A DNA stretch of 64,000 nt from a virus. The notes below the pieces were generated by a model. The model had not been told where the DNA came from and did not search any database. It saw nothing but the letters and a program-made list of their open reading frames with translations. A program made the position numbers and the translations under genes. Below are positions 7,048 through 59,289 of this stretch, piece by piece. The stretch's first letter is position 1, and each line of letters opens with the position of its first letter. The stretch lies in the IMG/VR virus record IMGVR_UViG_3300020048_000058; one strand, given 5' to 3'.

Positions 7048-7464
7048 TCATAACCCAATAAAACAGTCAATTTGAAACGTGGAGATTGCTACCCAAAGCC
7101 GAGAAGAAGTCTGTTGCACCGTTGTAGCGTTAACTTCCCCTTTTAGCTGTACCTTTGCAGTTGAAAGCTCTAGCGCTCTAACAACCTCCTCGTTAATGGA
7201 GAATATCCCGTGTCTGGCATAGATAGCCTCGGTTGCCTTTTCGATCTCCGCATTTAAACGGGAGCTACAACCCATCGAAATCATCACGTTCCCCGTGAGA
7301 GATCCTAGATCGGATGTGTACCAATCTATCGCACCCGTCCGTTCCCCTACCATTAAGTCCCGCCCAAAGTCGAGGTCTTTTAAATAGAATGCTTTAAGAA
7401 ATGCTTGTTCAACTTGAGGGACAAACAATTCTATGGTCTGTTTTAATTCTTGGCGATAATTCAT
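7048..7464 (-). CDS. hypothetical protein (138 aa)
   Basis: Track ORF. It is a single reverse-strand gene wedged between terL and the next rightward block. Confidence 0.45.
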   Translation of the reverse strand: MNYRQELKQTIELFVPQVEQAFLKAFYLKDLDFGRDLMVGERTGAIDWYTSDLGSLTGNVMISMGCSSRLNAEIEKATEAIYARHGIFSINEEVVRALELSTAKVQLKGEVNATTVQQTSSRLWVAISTFQIDCFIGL

Positions 7465-8214
7465 GCAATAATATTGTTATTAGTCTTTAATTTTATGTTC
7501 ACCCTCTCTAATTCTAACCTACCTGAAACAATCCTGAGTCCATTCAATCTATTGGCTCCTATTTTGTCTGCACAAGGAAGTCAGGTATTAGCTCCTTTGT
7601 TTCAAACTAAAACATTTCATAAATATCCTGGCGTTAACCCTTCCCCAATAGAGCTAACAACCCCTGATGCCATCTTTACCCTCTATAAAATAGACCTGCC
7701 TTTTTTAGCCGTTTTGCGAGTCGGGATAAACAATTTCATTCAAACTACTAACCCAGATAGATTGACTGGGCAGAGATTCTATTTAGAGAATACCACCGTC
7801 TATTTTGCGACCAATACCGTCCCCGATAGTATTAATTTAACCGTAGAATTTAACGCGCCTATCCCCAGGGTAATGTGTGAGTTGATAGTATCTGTTCCCT
7901 TGGGAATGATTGTATCTCAAGTTTTAAATAGAGGTGTCCCTCTTAGTTTTGGACAAGTAGGAGAGCGAATTGTGATCGATTGCTCTGATTCCTGCTGCCG
8001 GATTAGAGGAGGGGAAACTTTAGAGATGACAGGGCAATATACCGCACCCCAGAAGTTAATTGGTCAACTCAATGTCTTTGATATTGGGGAGGACTTAGGG
8101 TTTATCGACTATGTAGAATGGAGAGGTAGACGGTTCGTTGAACCGCAGGGGGAATTTGCTCCTGGTCAGTTTTTCTGGGATGATGCCATTCAATCTTTGA
8201 AACTAATCACTTGA
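7450..8214 (+). CDS. hypothetical structural protein (254 aa or shorter)
   Basis: Track ORF, with an alternative ATG at 7495. The size and the position ahead of a roughly 780-aa protein recall a tail-tubular A/B pair, but that rests on size and order only. Confidence 0.45.
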   Translation: MAIIHAIILLLVFNFMFTLSNSNLPETILSPFNLLAPILSAQGSQVLAPLFQTKTFHKYPGVNPSPIELTTPDAIFTLYKIDLPFLAVLRVGINNFIQTTNPDRLTGQRFYLENTTVYFATNTVPDSINLTVEFNAPIPRVMCELIVSVPLGMIVSQVLNRGVPLSFGQVGERIVIDCSDSCCRIRGGETLEMTGQYTAPQKLIGQLNVFDIGEDLGFIDYVEWRGRRFVEPQGEFAPGQFFWDDAIQSLKLIT

Positions 8215-11107: not shown

Positions 11108-12834
11108 TGCTGACTTACGCTGGTATTCCCTCTCAAATTCCTGCTCCGGTTGTCTCGGTAATTTCGGGAAGCCTAACGGGTTCGGTAGCAGGATCTCTAT
11201 ATTGGCAGATGCGGAACCGCCAAGGATTTAACCTGTATTCCCCACCAACCGCCATTAGTTTAACAACAGGTCAAGGGTTGACTGTAATTGTGCCTGACTG
11301 TAATTGTGATGGGTATGATCCGGTCTCCTATGTGTTGTCATTCTCCCCGACAAATACCTATTTTGCTGCTTACGTGATCGCTACTTACTCGGCTTCAGAC
11401 ACTTTACCTGGAACGTTAACAATTAACAAAAATGAATATTTTGTCACTCAAAGAAGTGTGGCAAATACATCCCAAATCCCTGCCAACAAAATCAATGGGA
11501 TGCGGGTTTACGTTGACGAATGGGGAGAAATCAGGGAATGGCAAGACGGTCAATGGTTAAAAGTTTATCCCCAGGAATTCCAAACCTTAATTACATCGAC
11601 TCGCTCAGTAAACGGCTGTGATAGGTTGCTTTCTGATTTCACGGATGAGCAAAAAGAAATTATTATCCGTCCCGATTATGCGGTTGACAGAAGTTACTCG
11701 GAACCCGTCAAGTTTTGGCTCAGGAATGAAACGACATCTCCCTATTTTGCAGGGAGATCCATATCAGTAGGGATATCGTGGGGAGATACGGACTTAACTG
11801 ATCTGTTTTTTGGTGCGGGTGCGGTCAATTTGACATTTTTAGGATACGTTAACTTAACTAATGGATCTCTGGACACCTCCGCGTCAGGCGGTGGGGAGAT
11901 GACGGGAATTAATCAAAGAATTACTTATACCAACAACAATTCGGGATTGATCTTGGAGAAAGATTTGCCACCAGGATATGCCTATCTAGTTGCTGTCGAG
12001 ATTCAGGTTGACGTGGCAAGTTTAGGGGGGAGAGTAGCTGAGAATGCCCAGATAGAGGTCAGCTTGTCAATTGGGGAACGGGTTGGCTACTATTCGGGTG
12101 TAGCTGCAATCATTGGCAATTTAATTAGTGCGGGGTTGGATCTACGTCGAATTGTCCCTGATACGGGTTTAAGCGCGATCGCCTTATCGGGATCGGGAAT
12201 TGTCAATGGGCGATCATTTATTGGAGTAGGAGAGCGTGGGGTCTTTGGTTTAGTTGCCAACGCTGCCAATCAAATCGTTGCTATTAACGGGAATGGGACT
12301 TGTTTCGCAGTTTCGGAGTTAGGATCGGGTCAAGTATTGAGGGCTAAAGTCGGGACATTAAATGGTTGTGGAAAAGCAATTGTGGCAGGGAGTGTAACGT
12401 TAAGCCCTTCAACACAATTACAGGTTGAACTAACGCATCCCGCAAATATCAGATCCGACTATCTTGATGTCATTGCAGGAAATTCAAAAGGGAATTTCAA
12501 TGCAACAGATATATGGATCTGGATAGGGGGAAATAAGTTTAGCACTCCAGTGCAGTTAGGCGAAGCAACTCAAACTATTGTCTTAACTGGATCAGGAGGA
12601 GAGGCAACTACTGTTCCTAATTCGGAACTGGGATTGTACAGCCCTGTAATTAACTCTGTAGCTGCCGTCAGTGGGGCTTCAGGCTTCGCTAGTGGGAGTT
12701 ATTTGGTCACAGTCGCATATTACTACACAAACACTGTGACAGCCATTTCTCACCAAGGGATTTTAGAGATGGATTCTGATATTTTGAGTTTTATTGAAAA
12801 CTCGGCTAAAAAATATGCCTTAGTCTTAGGATAA
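11107..12834 (+). CDS. virion structural protein (575 aa), possibly fibre or baseplate-like
   Basis: Long Gly/Ser/Thr/Asn-rich ORF between structural genes. No specific motif recognised. Confidence 0.5.
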   Translation: MLTYAGIPSQIPAPVVSVISGSLTGSVAGSLYWQMRNRQGFNLYSPPTAISLTTGQGLTVIVPDCNCDGYDPVSYVLSFSPTNTYFAAYVIATYSASDTLPGTLTINKNEYFVTQRSVANTSQIPANKINGMRVYVDEWGEIREWQDGQWLKVYPQEFQTLITSTRSVNGCDRLLSDFTDEQKEIIIRPDYAVDRSYSEPVKFWLRNETTSPYFAGRSISVGISWGDTDLTDLFFGAGAVNLTFLGYVNLTNGSLDTSASGGGEMTGINQRITYTNNNSGLILEKDLPPGYAYLVAVEIQVDVASLGGRVAENAQIEVSLSIGERVGYYSGVAAIIGNLISAGLDLRRIVPDTGLSAIALSGSGIVNGRSFIGVGERGVFGLVANAANQIVAINGNGTCFAVSELGSGQVLRAKVGTLNGCGKAIVAGSVTLSPSTQLQVELTHPANIRSDYLDVIAGNSKGNFNATDIWIWIGGNKFSTPVQLGEATQTIVLTGSGGEATTVPNSELGLYSPVINSVAAVSGASGFASGSYLVTVAYYYTNTVTAISHQGILEMDSDILSFIENSAKKYALVLG

Positions 12835-18215: not shown

Positions 18216-18272
18216 TTGGGTTATTTTTATTGGTGAAGATATTGGGTTTGTATTATAATATAAATAGACAAT
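18216..18272 (+). promoter_or_regulatory. repeated promoter element, copy B (TTGGTG-18-TATAAT)
   Basis: Near-identical to 16781-16837. TATAAT at 18254-18259 sits only 11 nt before the methyltransferase ATG at 18271. Confidence 0.5.
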
Positions 18273-19284
18273 GGCAACTAATATTATTATGCTAAATCAA
18301 ATTATTCATGGGGATTGTTTTGAGGTAATGAAAGATATTCCTGACAATTCTATTAATTTAATTTGCACCGATCCGCCATATTTTAAAGTTAAAAAAGACA
18401 GTTGGGATAGACAATGGGATAAACCCGAACACTTCTTAGAATGGATAGACAGGGCGGCGGAGCAATGGCAAAGAGTCTTAAAACCTAATGGATCATTATA
18501 TTGTTTTGCCAGTCCCAAAATGTCTGCTAGGGTTGAGGTTAAGTTGGGAGAAAGGTTAAATATAATTAATCGAGTCACTTGGCAAAAACCACCATTCTCA
18601 ACTAAGGCGGAAATGTTTGTTAAAGAGGATTTAAGGAGATTCTTCCCTACTTCAGAATCAATAATATTCTGTGAACACTACGGAGCAGAAAAAAGGGGGG
18701 TTGTTGGGGAGTTTCTAAGAGCTAGGAGATTAAAGGCACAAACAACTTGCGATGCCATAGAAAAAACATTAGGATATATAGATAGCAAAGGAAGGGGGTC
18801 TCGGCTTTTCTATAGATGGGAGACTGGCGACTCCTTGCCGACTAGCGAAGATTTTTGCAACGCACTAAAAGCACTTAGAGATACTCGTCCGCTTGAGGAA
18901 ATTAAGCGGGAATACGAAGAATTACGCCGTCCATTCAACGTAACTGCCAATGTTCCCTATACAGATGTTTGGACGTTTCCAACAGTATCAGCTTACAAAG
19001 GAAAGCACCCATGCGAGAAGCCATTAGAGCTAATTAAGCACATTATAAAGTCATCAAGCCGTGAGGGTGATTTAGTTTTAGATCCGTTTTGCGGTAGTGG
19101 CACGACGGCAGTAGCCTGCAAAGAATTAAATCGTAATTATATTTGTATTGAAAAGGAAAAGGAATATTTTGATATAGCTTGTGATCGCATCTCCCAGCCT
19201 AGAGAATATTCAGAAACAGAGTTAGAAATTATGGAATTAAATAAACCGGAATTTGAACAATTAAGTTTGTTGGATTTGGTTTGA
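18271..19284 (+). CDS. DNA methyltransferase, N4/N6 type (DPPY ... FxGxG order)
   Basis: Motifs LICTDPPYF and DPFCGSGTTAVAC, typical of the N6_N4_Mtase family. Confidence 0.85.
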   Translation: MATNIIMLNQIIHGDCFEVMKDIPDNSINLICTDPPYFKVKKDSWDRQWDKPEHFLEWIDRAAEQWQRVLKPNGSLYCFASPKMSARVEVKLGERLNIINRVTWQKPPFSTKAEMFVKEDLRRFFPTSESIIFCEHYGAEKRGVVGEFLRARRLKAQTTCDAIEKTLGYIDSKGRGSRLFYRWETGDSLPTSEDFCNALKALRDTRPLEEIKREYEELRRPFNVTANVPYTDVWTFPTVSAYKGKHPCEKPLELIKHIIKSSSREGDLVLDPFCGSGTTAVACKELNRNYICIEKEKEYFDIACDRISQPREYSETELEIMELNKPEFEQLSLLDLV

Positions 19285-22403: not shown

Positions 22404-23291
22404 TTAATCGACACAAGCGCATAGCTTGTTATTCTCTCCAGCTTCAATAAGTGCTTTTTCCATCGGGGTTAATGTTCCAACATCTCCCCAAGCGTATTTA
22501 GTCCGCCCCAAACCTTTCAAAGACCTTAGATCGGCATTTTGTTCCATATCTACTGCCCTTTGATATAGTTCGGGGTGTTTTTCCTTTAGTTCAATAATCT
22601 CGCTAATTTTCCGGTTTGGGCAAAAGAAACAAGATGATTTTGAAGGAACTGGGAGATTAACGGATCTAATTAGAGCATTGCAGTTTTCTTGGTTTAGACC
22701 CCAGTCAATTAAGGGGTATTCTTGTCTGATTCCCTCAAAAAGAAAGTCTCTCGTTGATCCGGTTTTGTCTAGCAACCTAGATAATTCTCCCGTATGTATT
22801 CCGATTAATTGGCGTGGGGTAGAGGTGATTTGTTTTTCCTTGCAATAAATTTTTATCCGCTTATGAACTGGTTGAACCTTCCACTTCATTGAACAAGTTG
22901 AATATCCATAGGCTTTGCTGGGTAACATATTTTTAGTTAAGCATTCTTCTTCAAGATTTGAGTAATCAAACTTTTGTCGTGATGTTCCCATCTGTTTATA
23001 TTTCACCCATTCAATCCCAGGGAATCCTTCTACTAAAAGCCAATTAGAAAAAGTCTCTACCCATTCGTAGGTTTCCGGTAGCTCCGCCCCCGTGTCAGCA
23101 AACAAGATTAAATCGGGTTTAATCCCTTTCAGAATCATTGCTATCAACATGGCGGTGCTATTGGTTCCCCCACCATAGGAAACAACGATAGGAGAGTTTG
23201 GATCGGGTGCGGGTCTATTCTTTAAAATCCAAATAGGGTCTTTAGCCTGAACATCAACATGATCACCAAATAAATCCAATTGAGTTGTCAT
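22404..23291 (-). CDS. PAPS reductase-family PP-loop enzyme
   Basis: PP-loop-like VVSYGGGTNSTAM, family-typical length and a C-terminal CFFCP motif. Confidence 0.55.
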   Translation of the reverse strand: MTTQLDLFGDHVDVQAKDPIWILKNRPAPDPNSPIVVSYGGGTNSTAMLIAMILKGIKPDLILFADTGAELPETYEWVETFSNWLLVEGFPGIEWVKYKQMGTSRQKFDYSNLEEECLTKNMLPSKAYGYSTCSMKWKVQPVHKRIKIYCKEKQITSTPRQLIGIHTGELSRLLDKTGSTRDFLFEGIRQEYPLIDWGLNQENCNALIRSVNLPVPSKSSCFFCPNRKISEIIELKEKHPELYQRAVDMEQNADLRSLKGLGRTKYAWGDVGTLTPMEKALIEAGENNKLCACVD

Positions 23292-23428
23292 ATAGCAATC
23301 CTATTTGAGTTGTAGGGATAAATGAGCCTGAAACTGGTTAACTGTTTACCAACAAACTACATCGGTAAATGGGGATTATTCACCATCTGGAAATAAATCT
23401 GGCAACGACGGGCGGTGGATCGTGGATC

Positions 23429-23461
23429 TAAAAAAGCCGAATCCCTTACAGAATCCGGCTT
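23429..23461 (-). terminator. intrinsic terminator downstream of the tRNA-like fragment
   Basis: Reverse strand reads AGCCGGATTC-tgtaagg-GATTCGGCT followed by TTTTT. Confidence 0.6.
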
Positions 23462-23470
23462 TTACCTCTA

Positions 23471-23517
23471 TCGGAGCGATAGGATTTGAACCTGCGCCCC
23501 CTACCACCCCAATGTAG
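23471..23517 (-). other. tRNA 3'-portion-like sequence (anticodon arm GGG/Pro-like, T-arm, 3' acceptor strand) with no 5' half
   Basis: Reverse strand reads CTACA-TTGGGGT-GGTAG GGGGC GCAGG-TTCAAAT-CCTAT CGCTCCG A. No matching 5' acceptor strand or D-arm within about 400 bp, and one C-A mismatch in the T-stem. Confidence 0.4.
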
Positions 23518-23587
23518 TATCGGTATTGTTTAATCCTTATATAGTAGGACTTTTGGAAGTTTGGGAACTTGAGATCCCAATTGTTGA

Positions 23588-23845
23588 TCAATCAAATGCT
23601 CTTGATTCCCAATATTGTTTCGCAGCTTCCCACTGTTCAGAAGTAGCAGCGACATGAACCTGATGCCCAATATCACTCTTGGCTTTATGATGGTAGGCGA
23701 TACAATTAGTCGGAAACCAAGTATCTGCATATTCCGCCATAATTTGAATAACCTCTAGCCCGAACCCGTGGGGGTCATACGATGCTTTATTGTCTGCTTT
23801 TCCTTTAGACTGAAAAAATCGAGCGTGTAGTAGTTTCTCATTCAT
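23588..23845 (-). CDS. hypothetical protein (85 aa)
   Basis: Track ORF trimmed to the ATG at 23845, which overlaps the upstream stop (ATGA). Confidence 0.45.
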   Translation of the reverse strand: MNEKLLHARFFQSKGKADNKASYDPHGFGLEVIQIMAEYADTWFPTNCIAYHHKAKSDIGHQVHVAATSEQWEAAKQYWESRAFD

Positions 23846-24054
23846 AAAGTTTCTACTTCCACAACTTGCGCTTTCCATCCCTTACGGGTCAATGCCAGAG
23901 CGTCTCTCGCCGCAACTTCGTTATCTTTGTATGTGATAAATTCGTCATCAGGATGGACGGCAATAAAGTCCGCGCCCGTACCTCCTGCATACAAACCTTC
24001 TGTGACTTGATCGTTGTAACGATTCCATAGCTTCACCGCAAATTTTAGTGCCAT
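23842..24054 (-). CDS. hypothetical protein (70 aa; alternative start 24132)
   Basis: Track ORF. The internal ATG at 24054 has AAGGA 8 nt upstream. Confidence 0.4.
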   Translation of the reverse strand: MALKFAVKLWNRYNDQVTEGLYAGGTGADFIAVHPDDEFITYKDNEVAARDALALTRKGWKAQVVEVETL

Positions 24055-24135
24055 TGTTTTGTCCTTAATGCTTAATGTCGTTAACTTTTTGCGCGGATTT
24101 AAGGCGTCGCGCCCAGCCAAAAACAATACCAAGAC

Positions 24136-24519
24136 TTAGTTTCCTACAAGAGTAAAGCCGTAAGTCCGTGCCAACTCTTTGGGAGTGCCACTGTCAACAA
24201 CCAAATGATTGCGATAATAAACATAGGTCTTTGTCGGAGTTTCTTGGATTAAATGCGTGCGAGTATCATCTTCCCAGTAGTTAAATTTCTTGTTGGCAGT
24301 CAGTCCATGTGTAAGATTCATTGATGCGTCCCAAATTGTTAACTGTATTGGTTTCTCCACAACCGCCACCGCTTTCAGGGCTTCCAACCGACCTTCAAGT
24401 TGAGTCAATTCAAAAGCCCACTTCCGAACTAAAGACCGGACGCGGGCAAACTTGACTATTAAACTGTTCAGTTGAGAAATTCTTTTAGAAAGTTGGTCGG
24501 CGGTTGTGGAGTTTTTCAT
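24136..24519 (-). CDS. hypothetical protein (127 aa)
   Basis: Track ORF. Confidence 0.5.
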   Translation of the reverse strand: MKNSTTADQLSKRISQLNSLIVKFARVRSLVRKWAFELTQLEGRLEALKAVAVVEKPIQLTIWDASMNLTHGLTANKKFNYWEDDTRTHLIQETPTKTYVYYRNHLVVDSGTPKELARTYGFTLVGN

Positions 24520-24590
24520 GTTTTACGCCCGATTTGACGGCGGCGTCCCTGTTTTGCTTATACTAAATATTGTAGCTACAAAATCAAAAT

Positions 24591-24746
24591 ATGTCAACCC
24601 CTAAATCAAAAAAACTTTTCAACCGCCCAACCGTTGTCAGGGTGAGGCTTTCAGAAGTTGAGAGGGAGAGGATAGAGGCGATCGCATCTTCAAGAAATCT
24701 ATCCCTCTCGGAATTGATAAGGTATTGGATCAATAATAGAGGATGA
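24591..24746 (+). CDS. ribbon-helix-helix (CopG/MobC-like) DNA-binding protein (51 aa)
   Basis: RPTVVRVRLSEVERERIEAIASSRNLSLSELIRYW fits the RHH strand-helix-helix pattern. It falls below the ORF-track cutoff. Confidence 0.5.
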   Translation: MSTPKSKKLFNRPTVVRVRLSEVERERIEAIASSRNLSLSELIRYWINNRG

Positions 24747-24779
24747 CGATACAGCTTTCCTTATTCCAGAAAGCAGAAA

Positions 24780-25499
24780 TTAGGGAGCAAGCCGAGCTTT
24801 CCCTAATCTATTTTTTTCATACCAAGCTGAAATCTCAGGAACCCAATCCTGAGTATGGGCCCACATCATTTCAGAGAGTTTTTGAATCTCTAACTGGGCA
24901 TCTTTTTTAAATCTTAAATCGAGAAAATGTAACAGTGAACGCAGGTTACAAGACATAACAAAATGCTGTCTGAAATCGAACGGGATTAAACCTCTAGCGT
25001 GTTCTTCTGACATTCCATTTAAGATATTATTTTTATACATTTCACAAGCATCTAAACAATATCTTAAATGGAAATCTCTTTCAAAATGAGAATATTTATA
25101 TTTTTTCCCTTGGCGGTCAACATATTCACCAACGGGTCTTAGGTAAAATACATCCTCAATATCACGTTTACCATCAACAACATCAATTATTCTTTGACCT
25201 GAATAACGCATCGACTCAACGCTAAAACTCATTATCCTGTGTCGCGTTGCTTGCTGCATTACACTGTGAGGGAAATAGCCAACATTAAATACTATGTAAG
25301 CTGTTTCGGCACAACTCCAATGCCCTCTATCACCTGCTAATAATCTTTTAACTGCTATCTCGCCACACTCTTTTTCTGGGGGGATTTTATCAATGCCTTC
25401 AAACACATAATTCTCGCTATAACATTGATGCAATGCCAGATAAATCATCTGTTGGGGATTAGCTGTTTTTGATAAAACCTCAACCTTGAATTTGTCCAT
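24780..25499 (-). CDS. thyX: flavin-dependent thymidylate synthase ThyX
   Basis: ThyX signature RHRIMSFSVESMRYS. Start set at the ATG at 25499, preceded by GAGGAGG. The longer track ORF would run into the CRISPR array. Confidence 0.9.
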   Translation of the reverse strand: MDKFKVEVLSKTANPQQMIYLALHQCYSENYVFEGIDKIPPEKECGEIAVKRLLAGDRGHWSCAETAYIVFNVGYFPHSVMQQATRHRIMSFSVESMRYSGQRIIDVVDGKRDIEDVFYLRPVGEYVDRQGKKYKYSHFERDFHLRYCLDACEMYKNNILNGMSEEHARGLIPFDFRQHFVMSCNLRSLLHFLDLRFKKDAQLEIQKLSEMMWAHTQDWVPEISAWYEKNRLGKARLAP

Positions 25500-25546
25500 T
25501 AGCCTCCTCTTTTGTGCATCTTTAGTCAAGAAACAATGCAATCGTT

Positions 25547-26314
25547 ATTTCAATCCATAAAATAGGCAATCGTCTATTGCGGGATGGATACTTAAATCAT
25601 CATCAACTAAACAGGGATGTTTCAATCCATAAAATAGGCAATCGTCTATTGCGGGTTTAAACGGGGAACCCAATTGTTTTTAGTCAGGATGTTTCAATCC
25701 ATAAAATAGGCAATCGTCTATTGCGGGTTTTGCTAAGTCGGAATGGTAATTAGCATCAAAATCGTTTCAATCCATAAAATAGGCAATCGTCTATTGCGGG
25801 TTCCCTTTACTTTTAAACTGATAATAGCTATCAGGGTTTCAATCCATAAAATAGGCAATCGTCTATTGCGGGAAAAAGCATACGATACAGCTATAAAAGA
25901 AGGTTATCTATTAGTTTCAATCCATAAAATAGGCAATCGTCTATTGCGGGAAAACCCCTGCATAGGCTTTTCTACCATAGAACGGTTTCAATCCATAAAA
26001 TAGGCAATCGTCTATTGCGAGATCAAAGCCATTAAGAATAGGATAAAAAACATCCAAGTTTCAATCCATAAAATAGGCAATCGTCTATTGCGGGTTTGGG
26101 TCTATCTGTTGGGTTACGACCGGGGGATTAGTGTTTCAATCCATAAAATAGGCAATCGTCTATTGCGGGTTCCGTTTACTCTGGGAACCATTCAAGGCAT
26201 CATTGTTTCAATCCATAAAATAGGCAATCGTCTATTGCGGGTTTATAACCATGTTCTGGGGATGATGCCAGAAGAAGGTTTCAATCCATAAAATAGGCAA
26301 TCGTCTATTGCGGG
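25547..26314 (-). CRISPR. CRISPR array: 11 repeats of 37 bp, 10 unique spacers (34-41 bp)
   Basis: The repeat reads GTTTCAATCCATAAAATAGGCAATCGTCTATTGCGGG on the + strand. Copies start at 25547, 25619, 25691, 25764, 25836, 25914, 25985, 26058, 26133, 26205 and 26278. Repeat 1 has A at position 1, and repeat 7 has A at position 36. There is an internal hairpin GCAAT-CGTCT-ATTGC. The minus orientation is inferred from three observations: the degenerate repeat is distal, the reverse-strand 3' end reads ATTGAAAC, and the array is co-directional with the nuclease gene. Confidence 0.97.
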
Positions 26315-26333
26315 AGCTTAATCCGCAATTGTT

Positions 26334-28007
26334 TCAGGCGTTTCTATCGAAATCACCTAAGCTCATTCGATTTATTATAGCATGAGTTTTGGCGGTTTCG
26401 GCAACTAAAAAATCGTGAACCCCGTTTTTAAACAAATCATCTGGAATTGTTATGGTGTCTGACTTTTTGGTTTTTTTCTTGGTTGCCTTTTTAGAAGAGC
26501 TAGGGGTTGCCGAATTTTTATTAATCAGGAATTTATACCAGAAATTATCGGACAATTCCACACCTTGATTGATTGCCATTTGAGCTAAACCTTTTAACTT
26601 AATGTTCTGTCCTGAGTTGACATCACGAGCAACGGTATAACCACAATTAGAGCATTTGTGAGTGCGTTGAGATAGCTTTTTCTTCTCTTGATGTCCACAC
26701 TTCGCACAACATAAAGTAGTTCCCCAATTATCAACCCGAATCACTAATTTTCCGTGTTCCTTTGCTTTGGTTTCTAATAAATCAATAGCTTGACCAATAG
26801 CTACGTCACTCCCTGTTCTGTTACTTCCTCGTTTGCGTTTTTGATTATTTTTATCGTAGATAACTGTACCATTTTCGGCAACCACTGGATTTCCTTCTGT
26901 GTCTAATTTTGCCTTGGCTTTAGCTTTTCGGTAGACGTTGGCGGGTTTGTAATCCTCAACAAAAATCACGTCAAACCAATTGATTAAATTGGTAGAATGC
27001 CAGTGATTGAATGATCGGCGGTGACGGGCGATTTTCTCATGAAGTTTAGCAATTTTATTATTGAGTTTCTCCCAATTCTTAGTTTTCCCCTCGTTCATTC
27101 GATACTTGCGAGATAATTGTTGCTGCATTTTCCTTAGACGTTTTAGCGATCGCTTTAAAGGTTGTGCAGCCTCAATAGTATGACCATTATCCAATGCCAT
27201 AACAAACTGATGTCCGGGGTCAATTCCACAACATAACCCTGTCTTCTTGGCTTGCTTGACAGGGACGGACGCAGTTAATTGTACATACCACCCCGACGCT
27301 TTTTTGCAAATTTTCATCGGGTTAAAATCGCAACCATACCACCGTTTATCAAATCCAATTACCTCGATATAACCCAATTTTGGAATATTGATCTTACTGT
27401 CCTTAACACCTAGATCCTTAGCGTTGTAATGGATTAAAGTCATTACCTTATCTTTAGCTGTTTTGAAACGTGGACGGCTGTGGCGACCCGCTAGAAATCC
27501 CTCCCAAGCCTTTGATAGTTCATGCGCTACACCTTGAATGAATTTTGCCGGGCAATCGGTGAAATTAACTTTTCGCTCCTCACCTCTAACTAAATAAGTC
27601 ACAATCCGATCCTTGTGGTGCTGATGTCCAAATACCTTTAGGAACCCGTATAGTACCGACTTTTTAGAATCCAGTGAGTCAATAATAGGGCTATTTTCAT
27701 CAATGGCGACGGGATGGATTAACCCCCTTTTCTTCTCGACTCGCTCAATCCCCATCTTCCAATCTGGGATCTCAATTCGTACCCATTGCTTGAGCTTGCG
27801 GTCGTATCGTTGCAGGGGAGTTGCAGGGACGTTAGACTTTGACAGTTTATCGTAAGGGTTCCACTCGTTAAATTCCTCTATCAGTCCTAATGAGCGATTC
27901 CAAACCCACTTACAAACTAGCATCCAATCTTCTAGGGTTCGCTCTTGTTCTGAAGATAGAATGAGTTTAAACTCCTTTGTTCGCACATTTTCGCTAAAAT
28001 TAGACAT
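26334..28007 (-). CDS. cas12: TnpB-like RuvC nuclease, candidate miniature type V CRISPR effector (Cas12f / V-U-like), 557 aa
   Basis: TnpB-type N-terminus KEFKLILSSEQERTLEDWMLVCKWVWNRSL. RuvC-I is GIDPG (D263), RuvC-II is FVEDY (E351) and RuvC-III is ARDVNSGQNI (D462). Zinc ribbon CAKC...CSNC (C434/437, C452/455). Lys-rich C-terminal tail. The stop codon lies 19 bp from the nearest CRISPR repeat. Confidence 0.85.
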   Translation of the reverse strand: MSNFSENVRTKEFKLILSSEQERTLEDWMLVCKWVWNRSLGLIEEFNEWNPYDKLSKSNVPATPLQRYDRKLKQWVRIEIPDWKMGIERVEKKRGLIHPVAIDENSPIIDSLDSKKSVLYGFLKVFGHQHHKDRIVTYLVRGEERKVNFTDCPAKFIQGVAHELSKAWEGFLAGRHSRPRFKTAKDKVMTLIHYNAKDLGVKDSKINIPKLGYIEVIGFDKRWYGCDFNPMKICKKASGWYVQLTASVPVKQAKKTGLCCGIDPGHQFVMALDNGHTIEAAQPLKRSLKRLRKMQQQLSRKYRMNEGKTKNWEKLNNKIAKLHEKIARHRRSFNHWHSTNLINWFDVIFVEDYKPANVYRKAKAKAKLDTEGNPVVAENGTVIYDKNNQKRKRGSNRTGSDVAIGQAIDLLETKAKEHGKLVIRVDNWGTTLCCAKCGHQEKKKLSQRTHKCSNCGYTVARDVNSGQNIKLKGLAQMAINQGVELSDNFWYKFLINKNSATPSSSKKATKKKTKKSDTITIPDDLFKNGVHDFLVAETAKTHAIINRMSLGDFDRNA

Positions 28008-28008
28008 A

Positions 28009-28028
28009 CCTATTTAAGAAATTGAAAC
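28009..28028 (-). promoter_or_regulatory. inverted degenerate CRISPR repeat fragment in the nuclease 5' UTR, ending 1 nt before the ATG
   Basis: The reverse strand reads GTTTCAATTTCTTAAATAGG against repeat positions 1-20 GTTTCAATCCATAAAATAGG (16/20 identical). It is oriented opposite to the array repeats, so it is complementary to a minus-strand crRNA repeat (18/20 pairs counting G-U). Confidence 0.6.
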
Positions 28029-28035
28029 GTATGTA

Positions 28036-28064
28036 TTGACATTTCCATTATATACAACTATAGT
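28036..28064 (+). promoter_or_regulatory. near-consensus sigma70-type promoter on the + strand (TTGACA-17-TATAGT)
   Basis: TTGACA at 28036-28041, a 17-nt spacer, and TATAGT at 28059-28064. It points away from the nuclease gene into the 220-bp intergenic region. Confidence 0.55.
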
Positions 28065-28070
28065 GGAATC

Positions 28071-28217
28071 ACCGACGTTTAGATCGGCAAGCCAAAAGCT
28101 GCCCTTGGAGCCGAAAGGATTAACGATTAGGCGATGAAGAGGGAATATTCTCTAGCCAGATATGGTTAGCAATTTTAAAAATAGGTAATCAACTTAAAGG
28201 GGCTCCGGCCCCTTTTT
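28071..28217 (+). ncRNA. candidate tracrRNA (about 150 nt)
   Basis: Bounded by the promoter above and a hairpin GGGGC-tccg-GCCCC plus TTTTT (28199-28217). It has no plausible ORF. An anti-repeat at 28170-28190 pairs with the minus-sense repeat. The motif CCAAAAGCTGCCCTTGG (28092-28108) resembles part of the Un1Cas12f1 tracrRNA as I recall it. Confidence 0.45.
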
Positions 28218-28229
28218 AGTAGACTCCAT

Positions 28230-28664
28230 CTATTTTTGAAACCGAAATAAAGAGTCAGCCTTGACAATCTCAATCTCAACACAAAGGGCTTTCAATCTCT
28301 CAAAAGCCACCACCGGATCGGCTTCAAAATCAACTGGACTAGATCCGGTCATCGGAGCGTCGGACACCGCCCCCAATGGCTCAAAGGCACGGGATTTGTT
28401 ATTCCAAAAAAACACTCTGTTAATATGTCGCTCTATTGCTTCCGGTGTTTCGAGAAAACAATAGATAAGTCCTGCGACAATAGCCTGCCTGACATCGGTT
28501 CTGAATCGCCTTTTATCGAGTTTAATTGTCCATAATTCAGATAGAAATTCCTCGTCGGTTTCTACATCATACCAAAGGCACTCACAGGAAAATGTATGTA
28601 GGTCGTTGTCGTGAATCTTTGGGGTAGTTTGAAAGCCTTTTTTAGCGAGTTTAGTTGTTTTCAT
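28230..28664 (-). CDS. hypothetical protein (144 aa)
   Basis: Track ORF between the C5-methyltransferase and the CRISPR-effector locus. Confidence 0.5.
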   Translation of the reverse strand: MKTTKLAKKGFQTTPKIHDNDLHTFSCECLWYDVETDEEFLSELWTIKLDKRRFRTDVRQAIVAGLIYCFLETPEAIERHINRVFFWNNKSRAFEPLGAVSDAPMTGSSPVDFEADPVVAFERLKALCVEIEIVKADSLFRFQK

Positions 28665-29694
28665 GGTTAATTGATTTTAAGATTGCCAGACCTAATTCTT
28701 TAGCCAACAACGGGGGGACGGCATTCCCGATGATTTGCTGAGTCAGGGTTTTTGATTCTGAGAATTTGTAATCATCGGGAAAAGTTTGCAGCCGTGCCGT
28801 CGCCCGTTGGTTGATTCGTTTAATTTGACTTCCCTGTACGATGTCCGCCCAATGGGTAGAGACACCCGCCATAGCTCTAATTGTTGGACAAGGCTTGTTT
28901 TGTGGAGTCGGTAAAATATTCTTGATACAGGCTCCCGCACGGGGGATTAACAAAACGGGTGAATGGGAATTACAGTGACCCGATACGATAGTAAAACTTG
29001 GATCGTTTGACTCCCGAACTGTAGCCTGTCTAATGAGTTGTTTACCAATATCAATTAAGGCTTTTTCTGGCAAATAACCCAGTTCATTCAGTCGTTTAAT
29101 CTGCCAGTCTGCAAGTTCGCAGTCCTGCATTTCTGGGATTAAATCACTAATGGCTTGATACCATCCCTTTTTAGGTTTTGATTCGGGGAAATAGGGGAGG
29201 GGTTCTGAATTTTTAACTGCCCACATAATCAACCGTTTCCGATTTTGGGGAACCCCATAATCCGCCGCGTCTAAAATTAACCAATGATAGCGATATCCGT
29301 TACGGATCAATGATTGTAGGATTTTCTCAAAAGTTGGTGATTTTGAATATCCTGGGACGTTTTCAAGAATCACCCATCGAGGGGATAATATGGCAATATA
29401 ATCACAGCAATAAAGCCCCGCATCTTTATCTTTATGGTCAGGAATATCACCCCGCCGTGCGTTTGAATATTGTTGACAGGGGGGACTCATCCAAAGTAGA
29501 TCAACCCGCTCCATGAGATGAGTGCGAATTTCGCCAACACAAGAGTTGAATACTTTGGTATTGGGAAAATTTAATCGTGCTACTTCTGCAATTTTAGGAT
29601 CTCGCTCAATCCCCCAAATGGACTTAAAACCTGCGGCTTCTAACCCCTTATCTGCACCGCCTCCGCCCATGAATAATGTTGCGAATGTTGGCAT
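28651..29694 (-). CDS. dcm: DNA (cytosine-5)-methyltransferase
   Basis: Motif I FMGGGGADKG, motif IV PPCQQYS, motif VI ENVPG, motif VIII QNRKRL and motif X GNAVPP. Confidence 0.9.
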   Translation of the reverse strand: MPTFATLFMGGGGADKGLEAAGFKSIWGIERDPKIAEVARLNFPNTKVFNSCVGEIRTHLMERVDLLWMSPPCQQYSNARRGDIPDHKDKDAGLYCCDYIAILSPRWVILENVPGYSKSPTFEKILQSLIRNGYRYHWLILDAADYGVPQNRKRLIMWAVKNSEPLPYFPESKPKKGWYQAISDLIPEMQDCELADWQIKRLNELGYLPEKALIDIGKQLIRQATVRESNDPSFTIVSGHCNSHSPVLLIPRAGACIKNILPTPQNKPCPTIRAMAGVSTHWADIVQGSQIKRINQRATARLQTFPDDYKFSESKTLTQQIIGNAVPPLLAKELGLAILKSINHENN

Positions 29695-38423: not shown

Positions 38424-38849
38424 ATGCTTAAAATTACCGGATCTCAGTTTAAACTCCCTCTTTTAAACTTCACTTACTTAGGACTTAAATCAATGCAAAA
38501 AACTAATTTTAAGATTGCCACAAAATTCTCAGATGCTACTCGCACCTCGCACCGAAAACCTATCGAATACACAGAGGTAGAAGGGTTTGTTGTCGGGAAT
38601 TGGGGAATTACTAATTATTGGGCCGGGGATGGTTGGATTGTCTACCATACTGTTAAGGGTTTGAGATTGTCCTATCTATATTTTGAGTGGGATAACGCCG
38701 TTAAAGTTTTGGAGATGACAGTCGAACTGTTTGGGGAAAACAACGATGGCGAACCGACCTCCGATAATTATAAAAAATCCTGTGATTGGGAGCGCGAAGC
38801 GCGCCCAATAGCGTCCCGTGAATGCCTTTATTTTGATGGTGATGATTAA
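38424..38849 (+). CDS. hypothetical protein (141 aa)
   Basis: Track ORF with GGAGGG 8 nt upstream. Confidence 0.45.
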   Translation: MLKITGSQFKLPLLNFTYLGLKSMQKTNFKIATKFSDATRTSHRKPIEYTEVEGFVVGNWGITNYWAGDGWIVYHTVKGLRLSYLYFEWDNAVKVLEMTVELFGENNDGEPTSDNYKKSCDWEREARPIASRECLYFDGDD

Positions 38850-51331: not shown

Positions 51332-52171
51332 ATGCCAACGACAACTGATTATGTTAGTTCGGTTTCGTTACTGCCAACAGTGGAATTTTTGGAGTTGGTA
51401 GCTAAGAAGCAATGGGACTCAACCGTTGGTTATGGCTTAGGAATATCAACAATTGTCCCGATGTTTCACTCCACAACTAACTCAGAATGGCTATGCCTTA
51501 ATTCTGAATCCGAGTTTTTGGAATCTCCAAAGGGAACTATATCAATCAAGAATCCTTTTGCCTATACCCGACCGGAATCGTCGCCCGTTTACGTTGGCTA
51601 TAACGATATTTCAATCCCATCTACTAAGGCAAATAAAGCCAAATCACTCTATTTGTTCAGGATAGATGAAGATGGGATAAACGAAGTTATTATGGTTTCT
51701 AATTATGACAAGAAACCTGATAATGTTACCACCGCACCGCCATTGGATTGCTTCTCTAGGGAGTGTCTGACGTGGTTTAGTAGCGATGTTGATTGGTTTA
51801 CGGGGTTTGGGGTTTCTTCTCAGTCTCTGGCTTCGTTTGTTGTTGATGACAATGGGATTATATTAACTAAGTCTAGCGACCTTCTGTCTGGACTTATAAC
51901 CAAATCCGTTACAACGGTTGATTATACCAATATTCAAGTCATTGGTACTATTTCAACCCTAACCCCTTGGGTGTCTTTACAGTTATCAACAGGGGTTCAG
52001 TTTATGGGGGGTGATGATAAAGCCAATATTCTATTCTTGTACTCAGTAGACAAGGATAATGATTCATTGGTGGCTTTTGCTTATGGCTATACTGCACCCA
52101 TATCCACAATTAGTTATGATACAATGGTAACAGATATTTCGTTTAATTCAGAAGATATAATCATTATTTAA
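51332..52171 (+). CDS. hypothetical protein (279 aa)
   Basis: Track ORF trimmed to the ATG at 51332, preceded by GAGGGAGA. Confidence 0.5.
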   Translation: MPTTTDYVSSVSLLPTVEFLELVAKKQWDSTVGYGLGISTIVPMFHSTTNSEWLCLNSESEFLESPKGTISIKNPFAYTRPESSPVYVGYNDISIPSTKANKAKSLYLFRIDEDGINEVIMVSNYDKKPDNVTTAPPLDCFSRECLTWFSSDVDWFTGFGVSSQSLASFVVDDNGIILTKSSDLLSGLITKSVTTVDYTNIQVIGTISTLTPWVSLQLSTGVQFMGGDDKANILFLYSVDKDNDSLVAFAYGYTAPISTISYDTMVTDISFNSEDIIII

Positions 52172-52172
52172 T

Positions 52173-54557: not shown

Positions 54558-54571
54558 TTATAGGAGTTAAA

Positions 54572-55150
54572 ATGACTGGTATTAATCGCTCAATGTTTGA
54601 AGATGAGAAGTATTTTGGGAAGTCATTGTTTAGGAGTTTCACCTATCTTGGTATAACCCCTGATAATACCACAATTCCCGAAGACGTTAATGGTGATTTA
54701 TTTGATTGTTACTATGCCAGCAATACACTTTACTTTTTAAACAGTAAAGAAAAAATAAATATGGGGATTGAGATATTTGACTTTACAAGGACTGATGATG
54801 TAGAGAATAAACTAGCTATCAACAGCAAGAAAACAATCAATGTAGTGATAGAGGGTTTGGGGATTCCTGCTAATTTCACTAAAGAAATAAAATTAGACCC
54901 AACAATTCATCCATTTAGAAAAATGTTCACGGGGGGTAATTATGGGGCTAGATATGGGGAAAATCCGGTTAACACAATCCCATCTTCTAGTTATCAGGTA
55001 GAGAGGGTTAATCTGGGGATATCAGAGTGGGATGATGGCGGTAATAGCTTTGATCGAAGCTATGCTAATGCTAATTACAGAGAATCATGGCTTAACCGAC
55101 TACACGGGGACATTATTGATATGGCTTTCTTTATCGAGACTAACGAATAA
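54572..55150 (+). CDS. hypothetical protein (192 aa)
   Basis: Track ORF with AGGAG upstream. Confidence 0.5.
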   Translation: MTGINRSMFEDEKYFGKSLFRSFTYLGITPDNTTIPEDVNGDLFDCYYASNTLYFLNSKEKINMGIEIFDFTRTDDVENKLAINSKKTINVVIEGLGIPANFTKEIKLDPTIHPFRKMFTGGNYGARYGENPVNTIPSSSYQVERVNLGISEWDDGGNSFDRSYANANYRESWLNRLHGDIIDMAFFIETNE

Positions 55151-55879
55151 ATTTAACTTTTCAAAAGTAGGCATCCGTCGCCCAACTTCTATATCCTCAA
55201 CCCGTAGCCACCAATTACAAAACGATTGGACTTGATGCTGTTCGGCTATTGATATCAACTCCGACCATAGCCCATTACAAATCGCTTTATCGGCAACGGA
55301 TTTATACCAAAGACTCGCCTCAATAAAATGCACGGGAACATCAAACGTCTCAATAATTTTAGGCAATCTGGTTAGGATCACCGGAGCATTATAGGTTTTC
55401 AAATGAGTTTGAATCCCTACCTCTACCGGAAAATCCTTAGCTAATTCGTGGCAGATGTTGGCGATCGCATCCCATTTATTGAATAGGTGGGGTTTGAAAT
55501 CTCCCAAAATTAATCGAGCTTTGGGATTGGCAATATGCGCGGCTTCACAATACCGCTTTAAGTTATCAAGTTTATAACCAGGATAGCCGACACCTAGATC
55601 GTCGGTAAATTCATTTGTTAATACCCATTCATTAATCTTAGGGAATTTTGCAACCCGTTTTTTAATCCATTGTTCTATCGTTTCACAACCGGAAAATGGA
55701 CAGGGCTTTTGATGTTTATGCCCATAAAGGAATTGCGCTCGGATAATTTTATCTGGGAAGTCCAGAGGGTTTTTAGTGCCATTTTTATCGGTGAACAACT
55801 GCCAATGGTAGCCAATCACTACGCCGCCAAACGGTGACAAATCCAAAACCTTTGAACTTCCACAGGTAAATTGAATCAT
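55100..55879 (-). CDS. TIM-barrel glycoside hydrolase-like protein (GH10-like motifs)
   Basis: WVLTNEF, GIQTHL and HFIEASL parallel the GH10 motifs WDVVNE, GxQxH and ITELD. Assignment is by motif only. Confidence 0.45.
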   Translation of the reverse strand: MIQFTCGSSKVLDLSPFGGVVIGYHWQLFTDKNGTKNPLDFPDKIIRAQFLYGHKHQKPCPFSGCETIEQWIKKRVAKFPKINEWVLTNEFTDDLGVGYPGYKLDNLKRYCEAAHIANPKARLILGDFKPHLFNKWDAIANICHELAKDFPVEVGIQTHLKTYNAPVILTRLPKIIETFDVPVHFIEASLWYKSVADKAICNGLWSELISIAEQHQVQSFCNWWLRVEDIEVGRRMPTFEKLNLFVSLDKESHINNVPV

Positions 55880-56361
55880 TAACTAGATCCCTCTCCTGCT
55901 ACCCACCCCCCGTTAAAGGCCCGATATAAAATCCCTGTCGAGGTATCTCGCCACGTCTCTCTCGCACTATTTGGAGTCTTAGAAACACTTGCAGGGGTGT
56001 CAGTGTGTACGCGCATTCTGGCATCTGTCTCTACCCATGCCGTGCCGTTGTAGATGTATGAGATGACTGAATCATAGTTATTGACCGCCCCATTCTCTTG
56101 ATATATCCAACGGGTTCCAATCGCAGCCGCCCCCGTTGGCGTGGTAGTGGCGACAACCGTAGAATCCCTGGATATAAACCATCTACCCCCGCCCGTTGCC
56201 GTGAAGCAACTTTTACTATTTGCTGTTGAAGTCGTGTCGGTTTTAGCTAATGCTAACCAAACTTTTTCAGCAGAGGCATAGAAGACAATTCCATCCTCTA
56301 AATCAGTAACACTTAAAGCCGTGATTGTGGCTATATTCGCCTTTGAACCCATCCAAACCAT
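55879..56361 (-). CDS. hypothetical protein with fibre-like motifs (160 aa)
   Basis: GTRWIYQENG...YIYNGTAWVE and TGILYRAFNGGWV resemble the YRWSGSVYVE motif of the tail fibre. Confidence 0.4.
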   Translation of the reverse strand: MVWMGSKANIATITALSVTDLEDGIVFYASAEKVWLALAKTDTTSTANSKSCFTATGGGRWFISRDSTVVATTTPTGAAAIGTRWIYQENGAVNNYDSVISYIYNGTAWVETDARMRVHTDTPASVSKTPNSARETWRDTSTGILYRAFNGGWVAGEGSS

Positions 56362-56365
56362 TATC

Positions 56366-56728: not shown

Positions 56729-56793
56729 ATTTTGTTAGCACTTAGAACTGTTTATATTATATAATAAAACAATAGTTTTGTGCTGATTAAATT

Positions 56794-57027: not shown

Positions 57028-57093
57028 AAAAATTATCCCCACGATGTTTTACCACATCTGGGGACTTGAGTAAACCTATATAACAGGCTACTG

Positions 57094-59274: not shown

Positions 59275-59289
59275 CTATTTCACCCTACC

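Follow-up and report, generated by a model that had tools for sequence, protein, structure and literature searches.

Type V-U2 (C2c8/Cas12u2) is one of the original 'V-U' candidate subtypes of CRISPR-Cas. V-U systems are listed as candidate systems in the 2025 classification, and the table of a 2024 review enters V-U2 without a size, a protospacer-adjacent motif (PAM) or a Cas12 letter. In the literature that we searched, no functional characterisation, guide RNA, PAM or demonstrated activity was found for this subtype. In 2018, the locus of the Aphanizomenon cyanophage vB_AphaS-CL131 (CL131 below) was assigned to V-U2 by its authors, who described no trans-activating CRISPR RNA (tracrRNA), no PAM and a single weak spacer match, and who proposed a regulatory role (PMC6293099). 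Here, we analysed a stretch of 64,000 nucleotides of viral DNA (IMG/VR record IMGVR_UViG_3300020048_000058; called the window below), in which a gene for a TnpB-like effector, a CRISPR array and a predicted tracrRNA gene lie side by side. As judged from its sequence, this locus is a member of the known candidate subtype V-U2. We estimate at roughly 0.8 the probability that it is a complete and probably active V-U2 interference cassette of ~2.7 kb, carried by a tailed, cyanophage-like virus of ~100 kb. The anatomy of the locus, its family, the structure and strand of the tracrRNA, the co-evolution of repeat and anti-repeat, the PAM, the targets, the turnover of spacers and the occurrence in multiple contexts were computed here. 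While the subtype and its phage precedent in CL131 were already known, the guide-RNA architecture and the PAM are the first computationally supported ones for V-U2.

The effector is encoded on the minus strand by an open reading frame (ORF) of 557 aa with an ATG start, at 26334-28007. Its sequence matches the PADLOC Cas12u2 profile with E 2.6e-107 over profile positions 2-443 of 445, and the best of its NCBIfam matches is V_cas_c2c8 (E 8e-90, positions 2-457 of 457). With these end-to-end matches to V-U2 profiles, the locus is not an intermediate or unclassified subtype, which the original prediction, made from the letters alone, had thought it might be. Two further PADLOC profiles come near, PDLC01698 (labelled Cas12f), which nearly equals Cas12u2 (E 3e-99), and Cas12u4, which is also similar. 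Among the other NCBIfam models, Cas12f2 scores 36 bits against a cut-off of 450 bits, the IS200/IS605 TnpB model NF038281 fails with 151 bits against 425 bits, and the IS607 model is under its cut-off. In Pfam, the protein matches OrfB_IS605 and Cas12f1-like_TNB. The closest solved structure by sequence is ISDra2 TnpB, none being close, and solved Cas12f structures match by sequence over the zinc-ribbon region only. An AlphaFold model of the effector, with a predicted local distance difference test score (pLDDT) of 77, was matched by fold to ISFba1 and ISDra2 TnpB (8iaz, 8h1j), Cas12p, Fanzor2, Cas12f and LaTranC. Overall, the profile and structure searches against Cas12 and TnpB families advised at the outset put V-U2 profiles first, with TnpB, Cas12p and Cas12f nearest in fold. 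The clade is small; 75 of 1.84 billion cluster representatives score E <= 1e-30 against the effector. Genome matches were obtained in Floridaenema, Geitlerinema, Leptolyngbyaceae, Dolichospermum, Nostoc, Chroococcus and Gloeomargaritaceae, some of them annotated C2c8, and the distribution of the family is centred on cyanobacteria.

The effector gene, the array and its putative promoter are arranged as follows.

26334-28007, minus strand: effector, predicted TnpB-like nuclease of type V-U2 (C2c8/Cas12u2), from profiles, triad, zinc ribbon and fold
26374-26382, minus strand: extended -10 box TGCTATAAT, ~60 nt ahead of the first repeat and still within the effector ORF (3' end)
25547-26314, minus strand, as the effector: CRISPR array of 11 x 37-nt repeats and 10 spacers
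26242-26277, minus strand: spacer S0, leader-most
26170-26204, minus strand: spacer S1
26095-26132, minus strand: spacer S2
26022-26057, minus strand: spacer S3
25951-25984, minus strand: spacer S4
25873-25913, minus strand: spacer S5
25801-25835, minus strand: spacer S6
25728-25763, minus strand: spacer S7
25656-25690, minus strand: spacer S8
25584-25618, minus strand: spacer S9, trailer-most

The eleven repeats of 37 nt (CCCGCAATAGACGATTGCCTATTTTATGGATTGAAAC in gene-strand sense) start on the plus strand at 25547, 25619, 25691, 25764, 25836, 25914, 25985, 26058, 26133, 26205 and 26278; between them are ten spacers, each unique and 34-41 nt long. Downstream of the effector, 19 nt separate the stop codon from the first repeat of the array, and the copy nearest to the thyX gene, at the trailer, is degenerate and ends in ...GAAAT. 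ORF and repeat analyses, phmmer and a family alignment thus agree with the initial description of a 557-aa ORF with a RuvC triad and a zinc ribbon, 19 nt from an array of 11 repeats and 10 spacers. The orientation of the array is fixed because arrays in relatives are always downstream of the effector and co-oriented with it, because the PAM sits 5' of the protospacers in effector-strand sense, and because the trailer repeat is degenerate. The extended -10 box TGCTATAAT is kept throughout the window clade, and TGCTACAAT occupies the equivalent place in the distant relatives L048 and L050 (L numbers denote related loci and contigs). From its position, this box is likely to be the promoter of the array, within the leader.

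The same architecture of effector and array recurs in more than 40 related loci and is therefore not due to chance. Arrays were found in about two dozen of the fetched relatives (viral contigs, genomes and metagenomes; 28-99% effector identity), and in every relative having one the array is downstream of the effector and co-oriented with it. Where fully readable, the repeats of these relatives are 36-37 nt long, and they mostly end in TTGAAAC/G or a variant (TTGGAAG, TTGCAAG) on the effector strand. According to a preprint, a length of 37 nt and a ...ATTGAAAC end are common to cyanobacterial I-D, III, V-K and V-U2 arrays. The window repeat has both.

Contigs that encode an effector protein identical to that of the window reach 102 kb, and a strain 99.8% identical to the phage of the window lies on one of 98.9 kb. 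Therefore, the window is part of a phage genome of ~100 kb rather than 64 kb, still of the ordinary size named in the earlier view of a self-contained RNA-guided locus. In contexts of the window type, the effector is 99% identical, thyX 76-77% and the other neighbours 80-96%. L011/L012 (98-99% identical) and L013-17 (94-95%) have the cassette too, but lack all of these neighbours. The similarity stops at the terminal repeat on the array side and ~20 nt past the tracrRNA terminator at the other end; the module therefore measures ~2.7 kb, from 25547 to ~28236. Relatives with 74-80% identical effectors adjoin a gene with a Ycf66_N domain and a gene with a CxxCxxCC domain. The Ycf66 family is known from cyanobacteria and plastids, and a chromosomal setting is thereby suggested for these relatives. 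Another relative (42% identity) is found beside a terminase. As no transposase is present, the cassette is presumably transferred by recombination.

Two contigs carrying relatives of the cassette deserve separate mention. On L045, whose effector is 43% identical, a second TnpB/Cas12-like protein, of 664 aa, is encoded at 1-1906, ~2 kb upstream and on the other strand. L021 (JBIPMB010000293.1) is a 3.4-kb contig with the cassette that was binned as a Gammaproteobacteria metagenome-assembled genome (MAG) of sample ME2015-10-10, which we take to be from Lake Mendota; it is almost certainly a mis-binned phage fragment.

In 20 IMG/VR loci (effectors 94-99% identical, one 78%), 93 distinct spacers were counted. 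They were compared with 153 kb of related contigs, namely variants of a hypervariable region gathered from IMG/VR and JGI metagenomes. At three mismatches or fewer, 20 of the 93 spacers map to these contigs, as against 0 shuffled spacers in five trials; at six or fewer, 30 map. Among the window spacers, S6 and S7 match related phage contigs exactly, S1 and S3 with 2 mismatches and S2 with 5. The matches agree with the suggestion, already made in the original prediction along with the advice to search virome data, that the array is aimed at competing phages. The 35/35 match of S6 lies inside a 166-aa ORF on an 87-kb IMG/VR phage contig which itself carries the cassette (L012), and which was reached through a degenerate pattern for one repeatedly sampled site. 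Overall, the protospacers are on both strands and scattered over coding regions.

The 166-aa target gene is found at 7776-8276 of L056, which equals 10001-10498 of L057, and as another allele at 14191-14682 of L080. Spacers S6, S36, S57, S80 and S82 match it. Its only Pfam match, to Rad52_Rad22, is nearly full-length and sub-threshold (E 0.025), and no PHROGs family was found for the gene or its neighbours. The protein is thus possibly Rad52-like. Two candidates were rejected during this search: a degenerate 'hot-spot' pattern for S33/S40/S45 retrieved only the arrays themselves, and the window ORF 7450-8214, hinted at by tblastx as a homologue of the target gene, has only a local similarity of 15 aa. 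In addition, the exact cores of the leader-proximal window spacers S0 and S1 gave no match in IMG/VR.

In effector-strand sense, GTN precedes 19 of the 20 protospacers (GTT 7, GTA 6, GTG 4, GTC 2), for a background of 5.5% (binomial P ~2e-23). The PAM is 5'-GTN. It independently confirms the orientation of the array, and effectors of the Cas12/TnpB type require a PAM on the 5' side. GTN is also selected by type I-D systems. For cyanobacterial Cas12k, the 2024 review gives GTN as the PAM.

The end of the window falls just short of the targeted region. L080 is 99.79% identical to window positions 51685-64000, runs 8.4 kb further and has an allele of the target gene of its own, with 91% amino-acid identity. 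None of the window spacers matches L080; the closest of any spacer has 4 mismatches, and the S6 site differs at ~8 of 35 positions. Searches of the spacers against the 64-kb window and the first 20 loci gave no nucleotide self-target, and nothing convincing at the protein level. In the target region, the targeted contigs are 75-82% identical to L080, and they are unrelated beyond it, while the phages are 90-99% identical elsewhere. We infer that only hypervariable regions can be targeted without suicide, and targeting itself may drive their divergence. In the targeted relative L057, at 12361-12785, ~2 kb downstream of the target gene, we observed a segment ~90% identical to window 37.1-38.8 kb (38447-38843 compared). 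As this segment is far from the equivalent place in the window genome, it points to mosaic rearrangement between these phages.

Among the arrays of related phages, those of L002 and L004 have a common trailer-side block, S19-S20-S7-S21-S17, and different effector-proximal ends, indicating polarised gain of spacers at the leader that overlaps the end of the ORF. Other arrays hold common spacers in shuffled order, and recombination between arrays is therefore also indicated. Nine pairs of spacers across arrays are related, overlapping or reverse-complementary, as compared to 0 in the shuffled control, showing that the same target sites were sampled repeatedly. A recurrent 'spacer' of 16 nt, S27 (AGAGATATTCTTGATG), is common to the arrays of L005, L006, L007 and L010; it is probably a truncated repeat-spacer unit spread by recombination. 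Near-identical spacers are reported in a preprint to be common to V-K, I-D, III and V-U2 cyanobacterial arrays with 37-bp repeats, and it is plausible that adaptation is shared with other CRISPR types.

A different origin of the spacers was considered, in which interference is the same, but arrays were swapped in from V-U2 arrays on host chromosomes by recombination at the repeats, self-matching spacers being purged. We regard this as possible though doubtful, and it and the cassette reading given above are not mutually exclusive. The relatives with 74-80% identical effectors, which have the same tracrRNA and a similar repeat, adjoin the Ycf66_N and CxxCxxCC genes that suggest a chromosome; the shuffled order of common spacers in phage arrays points to recombination; the spacers target the same phage family that carries the cassette; and the Pfam scan of the window found no adaptation genes in the phage. 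However, the repeat of the chromosomal relatives differs, which would hinder repeat-mediated exchange with the 99%-identical phage cassettes, and the leader-end additions of L002 and L004 were made on a common trailer within phage contigs.

On the other side of the effector gene, the following features were identified.

28007-28029, both senses: second repeat-derived element, anti-repeat CGTTTCAATTTCTTAAATAGGTA on the effector strand, repeat-like 22-mer on the plus strand
28036-28064, plus strand: predicted tracrRNA promoter, TTGACA 28036-28041, 17-nt spacer, TATAGT 28059-28064; points away from the effector
28071-28218, plus strand: predicted tracrRNA of ~148 nt, with five scaffold stems (28071-28168), single-stranded anti-repeat, terminator hairpin and T-run
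28169-28190, plus strand: tracrRNA anti-repeat GCAATTTTAAAAATAGGTAATC, 22 nt, unpaired in the consensus fold
28196-28218, plus strand: terminator-like hairpin AAAGGGGCTCCGGCCCCTTT and T-run, kept via compensatory changes in all lineages (helix 7)

The ~190 nt from the ATG to the hairpin at 28196-28213 are far more conserved than their surroundings, even at 74-80% protein identity. A consensus fold obtained with RNAalifold from an alignment of 13 sequences (A2) has 31 pairs, 16 of them with changes on both sides. In this fold, 97.3% of the alignment cells are paired, and none of 500 shuffles equals the pairing value or the covariation score; sliding the partners drops pairing to 29-53%. The strand was judged from the kinds of pairs, the plus strand having 18 G-U and 1 mismatch and the minus strand 1 G-U and 18 mismatches. 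The candidate tracrRNA of the original prediction, which ran up to 28217, is upheld in that the region ends at that T-run, and amended in that the predicted RNA lies on the strand opposite to the effector. Its promoter agrees with the consensus at 11 of 12 positions, and the transcription start site is placed tentatively. All relatives, L018 and L013-17 among them, retain the -35 TTGACA and a -10-like box in spite of a small inversion at this place. This inversion of 10-14 bp (TAGTTGTATA to TATACAACTA) is seen at ~28040-28062, in the bidirectional promoter region, between the window and L013-L017; in both versions a -10-like box is present on both strands. In minus-strand sense, the hairpin AAAGGGGCTCCGGCCCCTTT also follows the upstream 144-aa gene.

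The anti-repeat GCAATTTTAAAAATAGGTAATC pairs with the 3' half of the CRISPR RNA (crRNA) repeat (...GATTGCCTATTTTATGGATTG), leaving unpaired the AAAC beside the spacer. It tracks its own repeat in each lineage, being of wholly different sequence in L039 and 2 nt shorter in L018. A scan for anti-repeats by duplex energy alone did not discriminate, as shuffled repeats gave similar energies; covariation and the comparison of cognate with non-cognate duplexes were therefore needed. The mean energy of cognate repeat:anti-repeat duplexes is -26.8 kcal/mol and that of non-cognate duplexes -15.8 kcal/mol, and in 7 of 8 lineages no repeat pairs better than the cognate one. The locus thus appears to be organised as expected of tracrRNA-dependent class 2 systems, in which repeat and anti-repeat, the latter on an RNA of its own, co-evolve.

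A covariance model built from alignment A2 (R1) extended the candidate to other loci. It matches L045 (E 2e-10), L050/L051 (5e-9; an annotated C2c8 locus), L022 (6.5e-6) and, weakly, L047, in each case on the opposite strand just upstream of the effector. The effectors of the L045, L050 and L022 loci are 36-43% identical to that of the window. In L037, the match lies on the effector strand, between effector and array. No Rfam family was found at the tracrRNA region, at either the gathering or the E-value threshold. With R1, no tracrRNA was detected in CL131 or in the L026-L036 clades, which appear to use a different, same-strand RNA. In the L035 clade, a strong candidate anti-repeat of 31 nt is present on the effector strand in the effector-array gap. 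In CL131 (L082 3985-4003, MG209611.1), we observed a weak candidate, AACTACATTACATCCTCCG, which is also on the effector strand and is 16/19 complementary to the repeat; it lies ~90 nt past the effector stop, inside the effector-array gap. The window clade may thus have moved and inverted its tracrRNA gene.

The element at 28007-28029 was detected in the form of the inverted repeats I2 and I4, and its score in the anti-repeat scan is 31. Read on the effector strand, it covers the ribosome-binding region and abuts the ATG; read on the plus strand, it stands immediately before the tracrRNA promoter. In L018 it co-varies with the repeat, but in L040 and L042-44 its arrangement is different. It may be a decayed repeat, or it may have an autoregulatory function. 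One possibility is a feedback in which crRNA or tracrRNA levels act on the expression of the effector through the anti-repeat over its ATG. For V-A systems, autoregulation has been proposed through standalone repeat-like elements located upstream of cas12a; we take this precedent as a lead for the present element, not as a finding.

The same element gives rise to another reading of the strand, in which the tracrRNA is a long 5' leader of the effector mRNA ending in the anti-repeat at 28029-28007. We hold this to be very unlikely. The ATG-abutting anti-repeat is indeed complementary to the repeat at 20 of 22 positions, in the window a little more so than the distal one, a TATAAT box stands upstream of it on the minus strand, and L035, L037 and possibly CL131, which represent other V-U2 clades, have their candidate tracrRNA on the effector strand. 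But the scaffold stems would contain 18 mismatches on that strand instead of 1, and it is the plus strand that has the T-run and the best promoter. Moreover, the arrangement of the ATG-proximal element is not kept in L040 or L042-44, whereas the distal anti-repeat is present and co-varying in the window, L015, L018, L042, L045, L050, L022 and L047, and is present in a shorter form in L023.

The effector could cut its target or only bind it. D263, E351 and D462 were aligned by phmmer with D191, E278 and D361, the catalytic residues of ISDra2 TnpB. In an alignment of 20 family sequences, D263, D462 and the zinc-ribbon cysteines C434, C437, C452 and C455 are invariant; the C-terminal tail is disordered and Lys-rich. 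Binding without cutting, the effector acting as a transcriptional silencer or regulator, was the idea behind the regulatory role proposed for CL131, V-U effectors being thought too small to cleave (PMC6293099), and small type V effectors of this kind do exist (Cas12m, Cas12c, Cas12k). For the window effector it is nevertheless very improbable, given the invariant D263, D462 and zinc ribbon and the alignment of E351 with the catalytic Glu of ISDra2 TnpB. Furthermore, TnpB, Cas12f and Cas12n of equal or smaller size are given as DNA-cleaving, and the targets are spread over both strands of coding regions with no concentration at promoters. Finally, an ordinary IS200/IS605-type TnpB with its own omega-RNA, lying by chance beside an unrelated array captured from a host, would fit the generic Pfam and NCBIfam TnpB matches, the TnpBs that are the best solved-structure matches by sequence and fold, and the public annotation 'putative transposase', but is extremely improbable, since no Y1 TnpA or other transposase was found among 85 window ORFs (transposon ends were not searched specifically), the IS200_TnpB model gives 151 bits against its 425-bit cut-off, effector and array remain linked in relatives of 28-99% identity, the scaffold RNA, which has no guide of its own and whose anti-repeat co-evolves with the repeat, is encoded apart from the guides, upstream of the gene and on the opposite strand, a 10-spacer array follows the 3' end of the gene where an omega-RNA would have a single guide, and the 5' GTN PAM is oriented as expected if the effector uses these spacers. 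On this last count, the TnpB with transposon features and omega-RNA that the original prediction had named as an outcome against it gave way to a split scaffold RNA with no transposase found.

The surroundings of the cassette are those of a phage genome. It is flanked by thyX (Pfam Thy1), a 144-aa hypothetical gene, a C5 methyltransferase and dnaB, ordinary phage genes as first described. The candidate start of thyX is the ATG at 25499, which follows a GGAGG and is ~47 nt away from the array. Genes for portal protein, large terminase and head protein also lie in the window, and no tRNA gene was found in its 64 kb. A Pfam scan of the 85 other window ORFs of at least 70 aa returned 19 families, with no Cas1, Cas2, Cas4, Y1 transposase or integrase among them, in agreement with the initial reading of no cas1, cas2, cas4 or Y1 TnpA in the 64 kb. 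This check rests on the Pfam scan, as a PADLOC scan of all ORFs was swamped by methyltransferase models (best 25 of 133 families). A nucleotide-metabolism cluster at 22404-25541, with thyX and a PAPS-reductase-like gene, adjoins the cassette, and a thymidylate kinase is encoded elsewhere in the window. At least four DNA methyltransferases are present, at 18271-19284, 28651-29694 and 60169-61509 and in a Dam-family ORF. Two are of N6/N4 type (one fused to a ParB-like domain), one is C5 and one Dam, a set which suggests that the phage invests heavily in escape from restriction. In the region of the C5 methyltransferase, the DNA is 80% identical to that of Planktothrix phage PaV-LD.

For transcription, RNA processing, cleavage, adaptation in trans and the ecological role or fitness effect, we infer the following course. 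The array would be transcribed with or just after the effector gene, from the promoter inside the 3' end of the effector, and the ~148-nt tracrRNA divergently from the other side of the gene. Each repeat would pair, through its 3' half, with the 3' anti-repeat of the tracrRNA. The resulting tracrRNA:crRNA duplex, once processed (presumably by RNase III of the host), would load the 557-aa RuvC effector, which would recognise and cut double-stranded DNA with 5'-GTN upstream of the protospacer. With spacers aimed at the hypervariable region of relatives that surrounds the possibly Rad52-like gene, and not at the carrier's allele, co-infecting or superinfecting relatives would be destroyed. New spacers would enter at the effector-proximal end. 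Because the phage has no cas1, cas2 or cas4, their acquisition probably uses host adaptation proteins in trans (of a type I-D-like system with the same GTN PAM), together with recombination between arrays. A broader picture, in which a mobile 2.7-kb cassette among ~100-kb freshwater cyanophages is re-armed by the host during infection, is used on the closest relatives and drives the diversification of their hypervariable regions, seems to us evenly balanced between right and wrong.

Several points weigh against a complete and active V-U2 cassette. The NCBIfam C2c8 score, 302 bits, falls under the curated cut-off of 350 bits, so that the window effector is to be seen as a divergent C2c8 member, and the generic 'guided_TnpB' model passes. 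As to the tracrRNA, the G-U signal comes mostly from two or three pair columns in a structure predicted on the plus strand, the fold of the single sequence is no stabler than shuffles (z = -1.2), z-scores being non-significant on both strands, and the second copy of the anti-repeat at the effector ATG is unexplained. As to the targets, 73 of the 93 spacers are unmatched, and the 93 concatenated spacers had no match in the INPHARED phage collection. Self-avoidance was judged on L080 as a proxy, whose array is unknown, the carrier's own target region being outside the window. Lastly, host Cas1-Cas2 is no more than a probable route of spacer acquisition.

Overall, these predictions make V-U2 testable, by providing a tracrRNA structure, a repeat:anti-repeat register for the design of single-guide RNAs, natural targets by the dozen and a GTN PAM. 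The repertoire of compact editors would gain a nuclease of 557 aa that uses this PAM. CRISPR systems are described in a review as rare in phages of less than 200 kb. A phage population with very fast spacer turnover aimed at relatives would be a tractable system for studying CRISPR conflict between phages and adaptation in trans. Time-series metagenomes are suited to this, at least one related contig being from a dated sample (the one taken as Lake Mendota). If the reading is true, a natural, population-scale CRISPR conflict of ordinary-sized phages is waged with a TnpB-sized Cas12, whose guide architecture and PAM can be read from environmental sequence.

Among the known systems close to the locus is that of CL131. 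Both are carried by phages of similar size (~110 kb for CL131), have a TnpB-like effector annotated 'transposase', and have a same-strand array of ~10 spacers and 36-37-nt repeats after it, with no other cas genes. The effectors are, however, only 30% identical, over 84% of the query, and the effector-array gap is ~255 nt in CL131 versus 19 nt in the window, which in addition has a predicted upstream, divergent tracrRNA and for which PAM and targets are defined. The chromosomal V-U2/C2c8 loci of cyanobacteria (Leptolyngbyaceae HEY9848278.1, Floridaenema, Geitlerinema) belong to the same profile family, with a downstream array and 37-nt repeats ending in TTGAAAG/C, and L050/L051, L022 and L045 have the same divergent upstream tracrRNA. 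They differ by an identity of 31-43%, by their location in chromosomes or MAGs and not in phages, and, for some, by longer arrays (at least 31 repeats in L050).

Cas12f (V-F), Cas12n (V-N, formerly V-U4) and TranC are miniature nucleases which derive from TnpB, depend on a tracrRNA and are structural neighbours of the window effector. In common with the window locus, they have a 5' PAM, a TnpB-like core of 400-600 aa with one RuvC site and a zinc ribbon, and a long tracrRNA that pairs with the repeat. In contrast to these, the predicted tracrRNA of the window is encoded upstream and divergently. Its PAM is GTN, whereas the review gives TTN for Cas12f1 and AAN for Cas12n, and GTN is not the T- or C-rich 5' PAM expected of Cas12f. 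Cas12k (V-K), from the cyanobacterial CRISPR-associated transposons, has in common with the window the cyanobacterial background, 37-nt repeats with the same conserved ends, a tracrRNA and the GTN PAM, and adaptation by type I-D may be shared. But Cas12k is given in the review as a non-cleaving target selector of Tn7-like transposition, whereas the triad of the window effector is intact; no Tn7-type transposition gene was found in the Pfam scan of the window.

Among virus-borne systems, the I-F system of ICP1, Cas12j/CasPhi, Cas-lambda and Cas12r (of the Thermus Lalka phages) likewise combine an interference module with an array directed against competing elements, and those of huge phages have no adaptation genes, as in the window. 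Their effectors are of other families than that of the window. Cas12j and Cas-lambda have 737-747 aa and need no tracrRNA according to the review table, as compared to 557 aa and a predicted tracrRNA here. Cas12j/CasPhi is found in huge phages and not in a phage of ~100 kb, and no Cas12j entry appears among the sequence or fold matches listed for the window effector. ICP1 has a full I-F system with adaptation genes, which targets a host island, and the spacers of Cas12r target integrative elements. In contrast to these phage-encoded systems, the mapped targets of the window locus are close relatives of the phage that carries it.

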